53,351 bases of DNA from a virus (UHGV-0304279), one strand, 5' to 3'; counted from the stretch's first letter, positions 13,519-39,414 are shown. Made by a program: numbers and translations. The notes: generated by a model not told the origin, from the letters alone.

Positions 13519-14940
13519 TTAAAAAGATGCTTTATTCTGGTTGTTTCGTGGCGAGAATCGGCTTACCGCCGGACGTTGTTGCATTGACTGGATGCAAGCT
13601 GACGCCGCGCGGGCCTGGTCACACGGTAATATGTTGCCGTTGTCGTCAAAACGCTGGTAAACAGTCCCGGTTTTTCCGTGACGGTTTTTTGAAACGATAA
13701 TCTCCATGTATTCGCGTGCAACAGATTGTTCGTTGTAGTAGCCGTCGCGGTATACCATGATGATCCGGTCTGCGTCCTGTTCAAGATTGCCGGAATCGCG
13801 CAGATCAGAATTGTTCGGTCGCTTGTTCGGTCGTTCCTCGACGCGGCGGGATAATTGCGCCAGCGCCGCCACTGGTACGCGCAATTCTTTCGCCATCATT
13901 TTCAACGACCATGATAATTGCCCTACAGCGAGATCATGACGTTCGGCCTTAGCCAGCTTCATTAACCCGATGTAGTCAATCATTACCATACCCAGGTTAG
14001 GGTGATCCTGTTTCATTCGTTCGGCGGTGGCGCGTATTTCCTCGACCGTTAACTGTGATGCGTCAACAATCCATACTTCAAGATCAGCAAGTGCGCTCAT
14101 ACCCTGGGCTACGTGCGCCCATCCTTCATCATCAAGTTTTACCGGGTTACGCAGGCAATCAGTTGATAAGTTCCCAGCGCCAGCTATAGCGCGTTCGGTC
14201 ATTTGATCAAGCGACATTTCAAGCGTAAAGAGCAAAACACCGACCCGCTGGCCTTCGCCGCCAGGGTAGGGGCGTTCAGCCGCCGAGCGGGCTATTGCTA
14301 ACGCTAACGCTGATTTGCCAGACCCAGGACGTCCGGCGATAAGCACAAGATCAGTGGCGTTAATGCCGCCTAACATTTCGTCGAGTGGTTCTATCCCTGT
14401 TTTTATGTTGTCAGAATTGACACCGCATTCCATGCGCTTACTTAAAACTTCCGTGTACTCCTGTACTGCGTCGCGCAACAGTACCGGAAGGATCTTGTCT
14501 TTCGTTACCTTTAATTTTGAATACCGGGAATCAAAATCCTTCATCGTCTCCTTGACAACCTCAAGCGTCCCCGTTTCCAGCTTGTAGCGAACGTCTTCCA
14601 TTAGCTCCAGCATTTGCCGCCGCTGGTGTTCTTCCTGTAGTAGCTGCGCGTACCCTTTCAGGTTGGCAGCAGAAGGACACGATCGCGCCGTTTGCATTAG
14701 CGGTATGAAATTTTCGTTACCGATTTCATCACCAACCAATAACGCGTCGATAAGATTTCTGTTTCTGGCTTGCGCCCTGATGATTTCGAACGCGCGCCTG
14801 TACAGAGGAATAGTGAATACATCAGGATCGAGTGTAGCAAGAACATCTTGCGCGTTAGGAGTAAGCCCGCCTAACAGGAGGCCACCTATAACAGCCGCTT
14901 CGCGCTCCTGCCGCAATGAGTTTACTTGCTCAGTTATCAT
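13519..14940 (-). CDS. replicative DNA helicase (DnaB family)
   Basis: Walker A GRPGSGKS, DnaB-like N-terminal domain, RecA-like core; RBS GAGGT. Confidence 0.9.
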   Translation of the reverse strand: MITEQVNSLRQEREAAVIGGLLLGGLTPNAQDVLATLDPDVFTIPLYRRAFEIIRAQARNRNLIDALLVGDEIGNENFIPLMQTARSCPSAANLKGYAQLLQEEHQRRQMLELMEDVRYKLETGTLEVVKETMKDFDSRYSKLKVTKDKILPVLLRDAVQEYTEVLSKRMECGVNSDNIKTGIEPLDEMLGGINATDLVLIAGRPGSGKSALALAIARSAAERPYPGGEGQRVGVLLFTLEMSLDQMTERAIAGAGNLSTDCLRNPVKLDDEGWAHVAQGMSALADLEVWIVDASQLTVEEIRATAERMKQDHPNLGMVMIDYIGLMKLAKAERHDLAVGQLSWSLKMMAKELRVPVAALAQLSRRVEERPNKRPNNSDLRDSGNLEQDADRIIMVYRDGYYNEQSVAREYMEIIVSKNRHGKTGTVYQRFDDNGNILPCDQARAASACIQSMQQRPAVSRFSPRNNQNKASF

Positions 14941-14958
14941 TATGGCATTACCTCATGT

Positions 14959-16077
14959 TTACAAAATGGAATATTCAGGGTAATAAACAAAGCGCCCAAT
15001 TTCTCCATGAGCCGGGCTGTAAATAATCACCGCCGCCAGCCGCCGTGAACGCCAGCCGCCATTCGTCGAGTAAGCATCTTTGCCAGCTAACGTTCCGTGA
15101 TACTCGACAACGCCTAACGATGATTCAATCAGCCGCTGGTGATGCCAGTGTCCGCAATGAGCGTAAACCGACGACGATTTACCGAAATCCTCCCGCCAGT
15201 CAGAAACACAGGCAGCAAGTAAGGTTTCTGGTTTTTTGATGGTGTGTCCGTGGTGGTAAGCAAGGAATGTTTTTCCGTATTGTGTGTGGTGGACGATAGC
15301 AGGGGACACATCAACCGTTACGCGCGGTTCATCTTCGTAAAAAGCCGCCAGCGCCGCACGTAGCCAAATCATCCCCGACTGATCGTGATTGCCGGATAAC
15401 ACCTGGATCTCGACGCCCTTATGGTTTAACAACATTTTCCCCACCGCACGCCGGACCGACCGGATCGCCACATAAACAAGTTTTGCGTAGCGTGAATCGC
15501 AATCTAAGACGTGATTACTTGATGGCGTCACTGGTAATAGCCCGTCCGTGTGAAGCACATCACCGCCGAGAAGCAATACAGCTTTTTCAGACGTTGGTGC
15601 AGCGCCTACAGCGTAGTCAAAGAAGTCATTTAACACGCGTTCAGCGATCCCGGTGTCGTAGCTTTCTCCGCATTCAGCTTTATGCGCAAGCGCCCCGATA
15701 TGCAGATCGAATACCGGATAAAGGGCCAGGCTTTTCTGAAAATCAATTTCCGGCACTGGCACGGCTTCCGCGCGCGGCATTTCTTCCGTAAATGCGTCAC
15801 AAGCTGCCTGCATTAGCCTTTCCATTTCCTCACGGTCACGGGCCGTTTTAATCCAGCGCATGATTACATTGCCATCTTTATCAACGAGCAATGATTCACC
15901 ATTGACACCAAAACCCGGCGCGCGGCGCGTGGATATTAAACCGCGTTTCGCCAGCCGTGCGCCCAGGCGCTCGACGTTGCGTTTTGCCATGCCGTACTTC
16001 TCAGCGATCTGTTTATACGTCAGGCCGCTGTTATGTTCAGCGATTAATTCCTCATCGCTGATCTTTCTTTGTGACAT
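14959..16077 (-). CDS. HTH domain fused to calcineurin-like metallophosphoesterase (SbcD/Mre11-type motifs)
   Basis: N-terminal LTYKQIAEKYGMAKRNVERL HTH; phosphoesterase motifs DLHIG, GGDVLH, GNHD, GHWHH; ATG at 16077 with RBS GAGGA. Confidence 0.6.
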   Translation of the reverse strand: MSQRKISDEELIAEHNSGLTYKQIAEKYGMAKRNVERLGARLAKRGLISTRRAPGFGVNGESLLVDKDGNVIMRWIKTARDREEMERLMQAACDAFTEEMPRAEAVPVPEIDFQKSLALYPVFDLHIGALAHKAECGESYDTGIAERVLNDFFDYAVGAAPTSEKAVLLLGGDVLHTDGLLPVTPSSNHVLDCDSRYAKLVYVAIRSVRRAVGKMLLNHKGVEIQVLSGNHDQSGMIWLRAALAAFYEDEPRVTVDVSPAIVHHTQYGKTFLAYHHGHTIKKPETLLAACVSDWREDFGKSSSVYAHCGHWHHQRLIESSLGVVEYHGTLAGKDAYSTNGGWRSRRLAAVIIYSPAHGEIGRFVYYPEYSIL

Positions 16078-16206
16078 AACGTTATTCCTCATGTTTACAG
16101 AATGTATATTTATTTTCCGTAAAACGCGCTACAACGCAAAATCCCACCGCGTAACCCACTTGTAAGAGTGCAGTGTCTTTCTTGCGTCAGAGGCGCTATC
16201 AGGTGG

Positions 16207-16440
16207 CTATTTTTTGATTTTTAAGATGACATAAACGTTAGCTTGTTGGCGTCCATGCAATTTACTCCTGCAAATGGCTATTACTCCGGCCTGTTCCAGA
16301 GATCGGATCGCTAGCTTAACACTTTGCCGACTCACTCCCAACCTGTCAGCAAGCATGATAAGTGATATTTGATAACCTCCCGTCCGGCAATGCACAGCCA
16401 GCAGATCGTAAACTTTACGCTCAGTTTTGGTTAATTTCAT
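16207..16440 (-). CDS. small winged-helix DNA-binding protein
   Basis: 77 aa with HTH-like segment LADRLGVSRQSVKLAIRSLEQAGVI. Confidence 0.45.
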   Translation of the reverse strand: MKLTKTERKVYDLLAVHCRTGGYQISLIMLADRLGVSRQSVKLAIRSLEQAGVIAICRSKLHGRQQANVYVILKIKK

Positions 16441-16567: not shown

Positions 16568-17560
16568 TCAAAGAGCGCCAGCGCGGGTGTCGCGTAGCGT
16601 TTTTGGTTTTAGTAAGAAATCTAGTGTCGCAGTGAAGCCATTGCCGAAGTAAAAATCTGAGGCCGTATTTTTGAACGCTTCGAAGTAGCTGATAAAGCCT
16701 TTGATGCTTTTATCTTTCAGGTAGTCAGAGAACGCATAAATTTTACGTTCCAGATCCCGATCAAGTTCAGCAGGTGGTAACAGGCCATCAAACGTGCTGT
16801 TAAATGCTTCCACTACGTCGGCGGCGTTTACAGTAGCTGATAGCTTGCGCCATTGTTCAGCATCAGCCAGATACCCATCGAATTTAGTTACCCGGCAAAT
16901 GTTAATAGGCTTAGGCACTCCACCACGACTACGCCATTGAGTCAAAGCCCATTCAATTACTAATGTGATCTCATCCTCCGTATATGCCTTACGTGTTTTT
17001 GTTTCTGTCAGTAGTTCGATAAATGGTTTTGCGTCACGACATTTGCATCCTGCCTTGTCGTTGTAGAAGGCTAGGCAACGCAATGCTGCCAAATTAGCCG
17101 CCTGATCTTCTTCGCTAATAGGCCCGTCTTTTTCCAATACACGGAGTGTATTGTTTTTAATGTTCTCTTTACTGGTTATATATGACTGATTAGGGTGTCT
17201 CTCTGACACTACCCCCGGTGTCACAGTGACACTACCCTGGTGTCTCTCTGACACTACCCCCGGTGTCTCTCTGACACTACCCTGTAATGATGGTAAGACG
17301 ATTACATAGAAGTTACTTGTTTGCTCTTTTCCTCCTATTAGATATCGAGGTTGCTTAATCAATAACCCTTTCTCACAAAGAGCATCAATAGCCCGCATAG
17401 CTGTGCTTTTGCCTATTTCGCATTGCTTTGCTATGTGCTGGTAAGAAGGGTAACATTCGCCGTTATCGTTAGCGTTATCAGCCAACTTTAACAGCACAAG
17501 TTTGTGCATTGGGTTGCCGACTTCAGTATGAAAGACTTCAACCATTAGCCGCATACTCAT
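16568..17560 (-). CDS. replication initiator (lambda O-like) with internal origin
   Basis: N-terminal winged-helix segment (YPSYQHIAKQCEIGKSTAMRAIDALCEKGLL); iterons embedded in the coding sequence as in lambda ori; ATG 17560 with RBS GGAGG. Confidence 0.7.
   Translation of the reverse strand: MSMRLMVEVFHTEVGNPMHKLVLLKLADNANDNGECYPSYQHIAKQCEIGKSTAMRAIDALCEKGLLIKQPRYLIGGKEQTSNFYVIVLPSLQGSVRETPGVVSERHQGSVTVTPGVVSERHPNQSYITSKENIKNNTLRVLEKDGPISEEDQAANLAALRCLAFYNDKAGCKCRDAKPFIELLTETKTRKAYTEDEITLVIEWALTQWRSRGGVPKPINICRVTKFDGYLADAEQWRKLSATVNAADVVEAFNSTFDGLLPPAELDRDLERKIYAFSDYLKDKSIKGFISYFEAFKNTASDFYFGNGFTATLDFLLKPKTLRDTRAGAL
17194..17283 (+). repeat. origin of replication iterons (four copies of about 22 bp)
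   Basis: Four tandem copies of GGTGTC(TCTCT/ACAGT)GACACTACCC(C/T), each with inverted repeat GTGTC..GACAC, inside the initiator gene. Confidence 0.75.
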
Positions 17561-17782
17561 AAACATTGGCCTCCTATGGTTAAAATGAACGCGCGGGCGG
17601 GTATCCAATTAGCATTAGATAGCGGTGAGTGACCGCTTAACAGATCCCGCCGTTGCGTGATATTTGTCTTTCGCTTCGCAGCGACACCGGATTTTTAAAG
17701 AGCATGAGGTATGCGCCTTTTTGTGCTATTCCGTTATCTTTTTTCTTGCGTCTTTGCAACTATGGCCTTACCTTGTCTGCAA

Positions 17783-17840
17783 GTTTACAGAATGGAGTTT
17801 TTAGATCAAGACTTGAAAAATACATTTTGTGACTTGTATC
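17783..17840 (+). promoter_or_regulatory. candidate promoter/operator region upstream of the repressor gene
   Basis: Motif copies GTTTACAGAATGG (17783) and TACATTTTGTGAC (17821); -35-like TTGAAA (17811-17816) and -10-like TATCAA (17835-17840). Confidence 0.35.
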
Positions 17841-17868
17841 AAACTTTTTGAGGTTATAGGGTAGCGAC

Positions 17869-37935: not shown

Positions 37936-39414
37936 ATGTTGTCAATCAAAGAAAGGGTTATTCAATCCAAATGCGAAAACGATGGCCTGTTCTTCAACCG
38001 TTATTTCTATAAGCAGGCAAACGGCACGAAGATGCTGATATCGGGCCATCACATAGCCATACGCGATGCGCTACAACGCGTTATCAATGGTGAGATTACC
38101 CGCCTCATCATTAACATTCCCCCAGGGTACGGTAAAACCATGATCGCAACCATCAACATGATGGCCCGGTCCCTCGCAATAAATCCCCGCACACGCTTCC
38201 TTCATGTTTCCTATTCCGACAATCTTGCGTTACTCAATTCCTCGACAGTCAGAAGCATGGTTTGTTCGCAGGAATACCAGAAGCTATGGCCCATGAAGAT
38301 CCGCAACGATGCCAACTCTAAATCAATGTGGTGGACGGAACAGGGCGGCGGGATATATGCCGCGTCGTCACACGGTCAGATTACGGGTTTTCGTGCTGGT
38401 TACATGGAGCCGGGCTTCAACGGCGCGATGATTATCGACGACCCATTAAAGCCCGCTGACGCTTACTCTGATGTGATGCGGGATAAGGTAAAGAACAACT
38501 ACAACGACACGCTTGCTTCACGTCTGGCAGTGCAAACAACGCCAGTGATCGTCATTATGCAGCGTATCCACTACGATGATTTGTCCGGCTATCTGCTACG
38601 CGGTGGCAGTGGTGAGAAATGGTATCACCTTAACCTGCCAGTGAAGATTGATAACAGCATCGACTATTGGGATCTGTACCCGGAAAACGAATTCGCTATC
38701 CCTATTGCTCACAACCTGCCGGACGGCTGGCTATGGCCTAAGAAGCACAATGACAGCCATGAAGCTGGACTAAAGGCACACCGCAGGTCATTTGAAGCCC
38801 AATATATGCAGCGCCCGCGTAAATTCGACGAAGAAGGCGCATTGTGGACGGAAGCGATGATTACCGCCGCGCACCGGATGCAGATAACTCAGGATAAGGT
38901 CCGCACGGTAATAGCCATCGACCCGGCGACAACATCATCTGATGAATCTGACGAAACCGGGATCATGGCATGTTCCGCTTATGGTGGCGGCAAGTACGCA
39001 CAGTATTCAGTAGATGGTGACTACTCAGGCCGAATGTCTCCTAACGATTGGGCGCAAGCCTCAATTAACGCTTACAACATCCATGAAGCTGACGCGATAG
39101 TTATCGAAACCAACCAGGGCGGCGAAATGGCAGAGGCCACGTTGCGTAATGCCGGATTCAAAGGCCGCATTGTTAAGGTGCACGCAAGCAAAGGTAAATT
39201 CGCCCGCGCCGAGCCAATATCGGCACTGTATGCACAGGGAAGAGTAGCCCACACTGGCAGCCTGTACACGCTGGAAAATCAAATGATGGAATACGTGCCA
39301 GCTACCGCTAAAAAATCACCTGACCGCCTCGACGCGATGGTATGGGGTATCACTGAATTAAGCCAGCCACAGGCTGTGGGCCTCATGTTACCTAAGCGCC
39401 TGCGCGGATTTTAA
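37936..39414 (+). CDS. terminase large subunit
   Basis: Walker A-like PPGYGKT, ATPase plus RNaseH-like nuclease architecture; size and position. Confidence 0.85.
   Translation: MLSIKERVIQSKCENDGLFFNRYFYKQANGTKMLISGHHIAIRDALQRVINGEITRLIINIPPGYGKTMIATINMMARSLAINPRTRFLHVSYSDNLALLNSSTVRSMVCSQEYQKLWPMKIRNDANSKSMWWTEQGGGIYAASSHGQITGFRAGYMEPGFNGAMIIDDPLKPADAYSDVMRDKVKNNYNDTLASRLAVQTTPVIVIMQRIHYDDLSGYLLRGGSGEKWYHLNLPVKIDNSIDYWDLYPENEFAIPIAHNLPDGWLWPKKHNDSHEAGLKAHRRSFEAQYMQRPRKFDEEGALWTEAMITAAHRMQITQDKVRTVIAIDPATTSSDESDETGIMACSAYGGGKYAQYSVDGDYSGRMSPNDWAQASINAYNIHEADAIVIETNQGGEMAEATLRNAGFKGRIVKVHASKGKFARAEPISALYAQGRVAHTGSLYTLENQMMEYVPATAKKSPDRLDAMVWGITELSQPQAVGLMLPKRLRGF

Follow-up and report, generated by a model that had tools for sequence, protein, structure and literature searches.

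The question raised by this locus is why a gene for a phage replication initiator carries, in the middle of its coding sequence, four tandem DNA repeats with a perfect dyad in each. The gene (16568-17566, minus strand) is located on UHGV-0304279, a viral stretch of 53,351 nt that was analysed at its full length (the window), and the repeats (17194-17283), which the initial annotation had read as the iterons of a lambda-style origin embedded in an O-like gene, are followed in the direction of the gene by an AT-rich stretch (17154-17193) and a palindrome (17135-17153). The segment 17135/17154-17283, within the linker-coding part of the initiator gene, is very probably the origin of theta replication in a temperate coliphage of the mEp021-like (mEpimmI) group, as judged from its sequence and that of its relatives.

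The iteron array and its AT-rich neighbour

The array consists of four head-to-tail units of 23, 22, 23 and 22 bp, with an exact GTGTC-N5-GACAC dyad in each. Counted in gene order on the minus strand, iteron 1 (17262-17283; plus-strand unit GGTGTCTCTCTGACACTACCCT, sense AGGGTAGTGTCAGAGAGACACC) has the dyad GTGTC-AGAGA-GACAC, iteron 2 (17239-17261) has the plus-strand unit GGTGTCTCTCTGACACTACCCCC and the sense sequence GGGGGTAGTGTCAGAGAGACACC, iteron 3 (17217-17238; plus-strand unit GGTGTCACAGTGACACTACCCT) carries the variant spacer GTGTC-ACTGT-GACAC, which makes it a palindrome with 7-bp arms, and iteron 4 (17194-17216; plus-strand unit again GGTGTCTCTCTGACACTACCCCC) adjoins the AT-rich stretch. 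Tandem Repeats Finder reports 17194-17282/4 with a period of 23 (3.9 copies, score 143) and with a period of 45 (2.0 copies, 93% identity, score 161), the two highest scores among the 27 entries reported for the window. With up to one mismatch allowed, GTGTC-N5-GACAC occurs four times in the 53,351 bp, every time within the array, while shuffled sequences contain 0.88 matches on average and none of 100 reaches four. The four tandem repeats of 22-23 bp are thus present where they had first been noticed. An open reading frame search finds no plus-strand frame of at least 50 amino acids (aa) that overlaps the array, and as an Rfam scan of the whole window matches no family, repeats and palindrome are not explained by any known RNA.

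Directly gene-downstream of iteron 4, the AT-rich stretch (17154-17193, minus strand; 40 bp, 25% GC, A-rich on the sense strand) is, according to nearest-neighbour energies, the least stable of the ~960 duplex segments of the gene at a length of 30 as well as 40 bp and, with a mean of -1.108 kcal/mol per step, belongs to the top 0.42% of all positions in the window. In lambda, taken as a positive control, the 40-bp stability minimum of gene O (-1.110) starts three bases past iteron 4. The first ~31 nt of the stretch (…ACCCTAA(T/C)CAGTCATATATAACCAGTAAAGAGAA…) are nearly invariant in 16/16 relatives with the same type of initiator (type 1), even where the iterons differ, and its distal end is divergent in some variants. 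This putative DNA-unwinding element would extend the origin beyond the array to which it had initially been assigned: the array is part of the functional unit, but the unit would reach at least to 17154 and perhaps to 17135. With respect to other origin signals, DnaA boxes are not enriched in the window (13 matches versus 13.7 expected, none at the array), which leaves a DnaA-dependent origin unsupported; a promoter scan of the window finds no excess of promoters, and GC skew was set aside as evidence, as it is confounded by the divergent transcription switch at ~17.6-17.9 kb.

The initiator gene encodes 332 aa from the ATG at 17566 within an enclosing minus-strand frame of 346 aa (16568-17608). 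The likely start is either 17566 or 17560; of the two, 17560 is the ATG better spaced from the AGGAGG ribosome-binding site, and the resulting 330-aa form has the length of most database homologues. The protein is composed of an N-terminal HTH_36 domain, a linker and a helical C-domain. Its Pfam match to HTH_36 (PF13730; E 4.8e-15, 55.5 bits versus a cut-off of 25) covers aa 32-83 of the 346-aa frame, and the domain is present in all 120 homologues listed. The PHROG matches are 'replication initiation O-like' and 'replication initiation protein', whereby the N and C halves hit separate families. In an AlphaFold2 model of low to moderate confidence (mean predicted local distance difference test score, pLDDT, 58.5), aa 5-90 form a winged helix with helix 53-65 in the recognition position and aa 152-332 the helical C-domain, while aa 92-150 (pLDDT 22-30) are presumably disordered. 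It is this disordered stretch that is coded by iterons, AT-rich stretch and palindrome; since the iterons encode aa 95-125, the array falls in the linker between winged helix and C-domain. A sequence search of the PDB with the initiator gives no match at E <= 1, and a Foldseek search of the PDB with the model yields nothing better than weak, generic matches to winged helices (E > 0.06 throughout), which are uninformative beyond 'winged helix'. A plasmid iteron initiator (Rep_3 or RepA-RepE-Pi, with tandem WH1-WH2 domains) was considered and rejected, as there are no such Pfam or NCBIfam matches; the model has one winged helix and a helical domain, unlike WH1-WH2, and structural matches to RepA_N (4pql, 5kbj) are weak, with E > 0.09.

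As the array is translated, its conservation might reside in the peptide or in the DNA. With units of 23 and 22 nt in alternation, the reading frame shifts from each unit to the next; one 22/23-nt unit is thereby translated in two ways, GSVRETP and GVVSERH, and four DNA repeats yield two peptide repeats. The 45-nt super-period alone repeats as peptide, in two 15-aa repeats, QGSVRETPGVVSERH and QGSVTVTPGVVSERH; the repeated peptide initially attributed to the four units does exist, but in two copies rather than four. When 14 relatives are aligned by codon, third-position diversity is 0.02-0.10 and amino-acid diversity ~0.2 across iterons and AT-rich stretch, against the normal coding pattern of 0.26-0.30 and 0-0.02, respectively, in the flanking N-domain codons. 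Selection on the repeats acts at the level of the DNA and not of the peptide. A merely repetitive, flexible peptide linker without a function in the DNA would agree with the low confidence and presumed disorder of the coded segment and with the tolerated expansion or contraction by 15, 30 or 45 aa. It would, however, have to account for adjacent units that give unrelated heptapeptides, for an amino-acid diversity above the third-position diversity, which is the reverse of protein-level constraint, and for a perfect DNA dyad in each unit and a repeat class that tracks residues of the recognition helix (see below), and is hardly conceivable.

Each of the 16 type-1 relatives has the array in the same position, in 2, 4 or 6 copies, and as the copy number always shifts by 45 nt, the reading frame is preserved. 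The linker could be parsed in 115 homologue clusters, of which 102 have four copies, nine have two and four have six. Such variation in copy number, along with module junctions located directly after the AT-rich stretch, could also suggest that a recombination hot spot at a boundary between mosaic modules generated the array, as tandem duplications without selected function. This is very improbable given units that are 84-100% conserved with perfect dyads, the strong preference for four copies (102/115) and distinct repeat classes that are maintained and matched to the N-domain. Individual prophages deviate: in Escherichia coli Ecol_244 (locus L008) the third iteron is degenerate (GGTGGTGTCACTGTGACACAGG), and in E. 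coli strain 190 (L011) the initiator gene, annotated as two open reading frames, is split or truncated directly past the AT-rich stretch. Both may be signs of prophage decay.

Repeat classes, recognition helix and exchange of the N-domain

In the mEpimmI phages, the orthologous gene carries its array where the window has it, yet not always with the same repeat. Class A (GTGTC/GACAC), found in the window and in mEp554, goes along with the helix region CEI(G/S)KSTAMRA(I/V)DALCEKGLLI, class B (GTGGC/GCAAC), found in mEp021, with CEINKSTAMRAIEALCKKGLLL, and class C (GTGAC/GTCAC, with some A-type arms), found in mEp010, mEp013 and mEp044, with CEISKRTAMRAVDSLCEKGLLI. In the window, codons 52-65 (G52-K-S54-TAMRAIDALCE65; 17372-17413 on the minus strand) cover the predicted recognition helix from its start through its body. 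Residues 52, 54, 61, 62 and 65, plus 70 and 18, switch together with the iteron class, to give the pairings (G/S)KS..DA..E for class A, NKS..EA..K for class B and SKR..DS..E for class C, in N-domains that are otherwise almost identical.

Translation of the iterons makes the class readable from protein sequences as well. Out of 120 cluster representatives, 114 can be scored for both features, and helix and iteron class are concordant in all 114 (38 A, 24 B and 52 C). The upstream gene for an 81-aa winged helix-turn-helix (wHTH) protein, in either of its two variants, assorts freely across the classes, and so do the linker variants beyond the AT-rich stretch and a variant of the mid-C-domain. 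Recombination has therefore shuffled both sides while helix and iterons remain paired.

A small wHTH protein, either the 81-aa MarR-like protein of mEp021 or the 77-aa MarR-like protein of the window, might bind the repeats instead of the initiator, as two such genes are located near the initiator genes in this phage group. The 81-aa gene, however, is absent from the window and from loci L008, L015 and L018, all of which have the array; its helix-turn-helix does not differ between classes A, B and C, and its single variant form is found with both A and B. The 77-aa protein of the window, in turn, is unrelated to the 81-aa protein and replaced by other genes in relatives. Binding by either small protein is barely credible, and the 81-aa protein, absent here and without covariation with the iteron class, is ruled out as the iteron binder. 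In mEp021 (L001, 5135-5380) and most relatives, the 81-aa gene is located between repressor and initiator; the slot of the 77-aa gene is variable and contains Rha-family regulators in other prophages.

A second comparison is provided by initiators that have the same C-domain and an unrelated N-domain (type 2; Lin1244/Lin1753 in RefSeq), found in most IMG/VR relatives and, different in this respect from the window, in mEp515 and MagusPhagus (loci L003, MagusPhagus; L006, mEp515; L013 and L020-L056). At the equivalent position, type-2 genes contain four 11-bp repeats, GGTCATGAnnG or, in a sub-type with a differing N-domain, CCATGGCACAA, followed by a purine/AT-rich run (GAA/TTAGAA-rich). The combination of another DNA-binding domain with other repeats, at the same place and with the same AT-rich neighbour, is the pattern expected of initiator/origin modules, as far as sequence comparison can tell. 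The type-2 initiator gene is preceded by a small MarR-like gene.

The palindrome (17135-17153; 15-19 bp), CAATACAC-GGA-GTGTATTG, just beyond the AT-rich stretch, is an island of identity between the non-homologous flanks of the two initiator types. Its core, ATACAC-N3-GTGTAT, is retained in 47/56 related loci and is read in phase 1 in type-1 genes (NTLRVL) and in phase 2 in type-2 genes (IYTSCI). On the plus strand, antisense to the initiator gene, it scores as a terminator-like hairpin. The palindrome is a possible accessory origin element and may act, for example, as a signal for helicase loading or priming that the shared C-domain and the helicase of the P22 gp12 type recognize. The joint proposal that it is a distinct functional component of the origin and that the three iteron/helix classes are mutually orthogonal replicon specificities is tentative, and we would rather doubt than favour it. 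In variants without the palindrome (L004, which is mEp554, L009-L012 and L018), GATATACCCCCTT(A/G)TATCCCCC (GATATACCCCCTTATATCCCCC) is found directly past the AT-rich stretch, and P22 gene 18 has TACCCCCTTACCCCCT, which resembles GATATACCCCCTTATATCCCCC, just past its A-rich run (L057, 634-649). This likeness could reflect a shared element or coincidence.

Lambda, P22 and SfV as reference systems

The best-known origin of this layout is ori-lambda, with four 18-bp iterons (ITN1-4) and a 38-bp AT-rich sequence at 39034-39160 inside gene O (PMC3349717); bending at the O iterons and unwinding of the AT-rich sequence have been summarized recently (PMC12663957). As in the window, four dyad-symmetric repeats about two helical turns apart are located in the linker-coding middle of the initiator gene, spanning aa 117-145 of 299 in lambda and aa 95-125 of 332 in the window, and are followed gene-downstream by an AT-rich stretch with an A-rich sense strand (-1.11 kcal/mol per step in lambda), to give a total of ~130 bp. 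On the other hand, the iteron sequences are unrelated, and lambda uses its P protein to hijack host DnaB where the window encodes a DnaB-type helicase of its own. Membership in the lambda O family (Pfam Phage_rep_O) is rejected, as there is no meaningful BLASTP alignment and no match to TIGR01610 (phage_O_Nterm) at E <= 0.01, a model on which lambda O itself scores 132.6 bits (E 5.4e-39), and only the analogy is kept. The gene enclosing the repeats is hence of the replication-initiator type, as initially proposed, but its product is not a lambda O homologue; the layout of an origin within the initiator gene has stood up to every prediction that could be tested at the sequence level.

The better reference, as far as homology goes, is gene 18 and gene 12 of P22. 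Lambda O, P22 gene 18 and gene 18 of phage L each have their own iterons, four repeats of ~20 bp in the case of P22, and gp12 is a DnaB-type helicase (PMC8022706). Like the window, P22 encodes its helicase rather than a loader of the lambda P type, and the helicase of the window (13519-14940, minus strand), which has the DnaB_C and DnaB N-terminal domains, aligns with gp12 over 444 aa at 57% identity. The C-terminal tail of the initiator (16571-16831, minus strand; codons 246-332, the last 87 aa) is 35% identical to the C-terminus of gp18 (E 7e-14), and in gene 18, too, direct repeats are followed by an A-rich run (L057, 529-633). Unlike in the window, the N-terminal DNA-binding domain of gp18 and the repeat sequence are of another kind, unrelated to those considered here and without full-length homology of the initiators; in the P22 locus compared, gene 12 begins at the end of the gene 18 frame, where the window has two intervening genes, and the backbone of the window is that of the non-lambdoid mEpimmI group.

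SfV orf39, ST64B sb42 and Stx2a_WGPS2 gp15 have an N-domain 48% identical to that of the window (aa 3-129, E 1e-32) and, at the same position of the gene, related repeats, GGTAGTGCA-N5-T(T/G)CACC, which have the frame GGTAGTG...CACC in common with the iterons of the window. They differ in their C-terminal domain and in the lack of an adjacent gp12-like helicase, and their repeats (at about 2270-2420 of L058, L059 and L060) are less regular and followed by 2.5 copies of a 12-mer, GAACCAGTCAAA, with no clear AT-rich run. These repeats are probably the origins of those phages. With an SfV-type N-domain that comes with matching iterons and a P22-type C-tail that comes with a matching helicase, the module of the window is a mosaic.

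These comparisons suggest how the origin might work. Dimers of the winged-helix N-domain of the initiator would bind the four dyad iterons, which are 22-23 bp or roughly two helical turns apart, as indicated by the dyad symmetry, the winged-helix domain and the covariation of helix and iterons. The nucleoprotein complex would destabilize the adjoining 40-bp AT-rich stretch, to which the stability profile and the lambda analogy point (PMC3349717). The C-domain with its gp18-like tail (aa 246-332), the predicted docking surface for the phage helicase, would then recruit the gp12-like DnaB-type helicase (13519-14940), the presumed partner loaded at the origin, as suggested by the gp18 and gp12 homologies, and host primase and polymerase would take over. 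Early transcription from the immunity region would pass through the initiator gene and hence through the origin.

The array might nevertheless consist of sites for control only, used in autoregulation, as a transcription roadblock or in copy-number 'handcuffing', with replication starting elsewhere, for example at 17780-17860. Plasmid iterons serve initiation and control alike, and the intergenic segment 17800-17859 has 25-30% GC. Against a pure control function, the stability minimum directly abuts the last iteron, as in lambda, the pairing of iterons with an AT-rich run recurs in the unrelated N-domain module of type 2 and in P22 gene 18, and no further iteron copies exist in the window, promoter region included, where a half-site at 17673-17690 is class-invariant and boxB-like. 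Overall, a role restricted to control is unlikely. The half-site is a hairpin, TCGCT-GCGA-AGCGA (minus strand CCGGTGTCGCTGCGAAGCGAAAG), in the intergenic region between repressor and initiator that resembles half an iteron and was flagged in the repeat search; as it is invariant across all three iteron classes, it is ruled out as a fifth, inverted iteron. It is probably the nutL boxB, which has been placed upstream of the repressor gene in the mEpimmI group (PMC11893012).

In-gene iteron origins of the lambda, P22 and L kind can be described by at least three direct repeats of ~11-20 bp or more between the domains of the initiator, an AT-rich neighbour and co-inheritance of repeats and N-domain. 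The window has the repeats, the easily melted stretch and the co-inheritance, the last of which is a correlation only. Several points weigh against assigning the origin to 17135/17154-17283. The lambda mechanism is carried over by analogy, as no relationship between the sequences of the initiator and lambda O can be detected, and the structural model has low to moderate confidence and finds no significant match in the fold search. Natural variants with two iterons imply that four sites may not be required. As helix and iterons are 70-220 bp apart, physical linkage contributes to their association, and the three iteron classes may be merely three old lineages. The intergenic segment 17800-17860 is as AT-rich as 17154-17193 (25% GC), so that the latter is not the local AT maximum. 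Finally, the 2025 paper that defines the mEpimmI group, the only one on these phages that a literature search found, makes no mention of iterons or a replication origin (PMC11893012), and the origin proposed here is read from the sequence.

Genomic setting and significance for the mEpimmI phages

Gene-downstream of the initiator on the minus strand follow the gene for the 77-aa MarR-like protein (16207-16440), a conserved gene for a 377-aa protein (14959-16092) that matches phrog_704, 'DNA repair exonuclease', with E 9e-137 and has a weak N-terminal helix-turn-helix, and the DnaB-family helicase gene. The 377-aa phrog_704 protein is encoded between initiator and helicase in every relative examined. 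Gene-upstream and divergent are a CI/LexA-type repressor gene and then the genes for Erf and SSB. Over this region, identity to the mEp021/mEpimmI coliphages (MH706966, PP180001-5, PP925836) is 84-91% and that to prophages of E. coli PAR and KKa019 is 99.7%, and an IMG/VR contig of 53,036 bp has an identical initiator.

With the array and its neighbours, the probable replication origin of the mEpimmI phages is narrowed to about 130-150 bp. The layout as such is known from lambda and P22, while for the mEpimmI phages the origin had not been pointed out previously. Conceptually an ordinary case, it represents the lambda/P22 design reused in a non-lambdoid backbone via the shuffling of domains and modules. 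In-gene iteron origins are also relevant to the biology of phage defence, as an enrichment of Lamassu at the iterons of lambda gene O in the course of infection has been reported (PMC12663957). The three natural specificity classes, distinguished by one base per half-site and a few helix residues, are usable for studies of winged-helix recognition and replicon incompatibility and, if truly orthogonal, the iteron/helix classes would let related prophages coexist.

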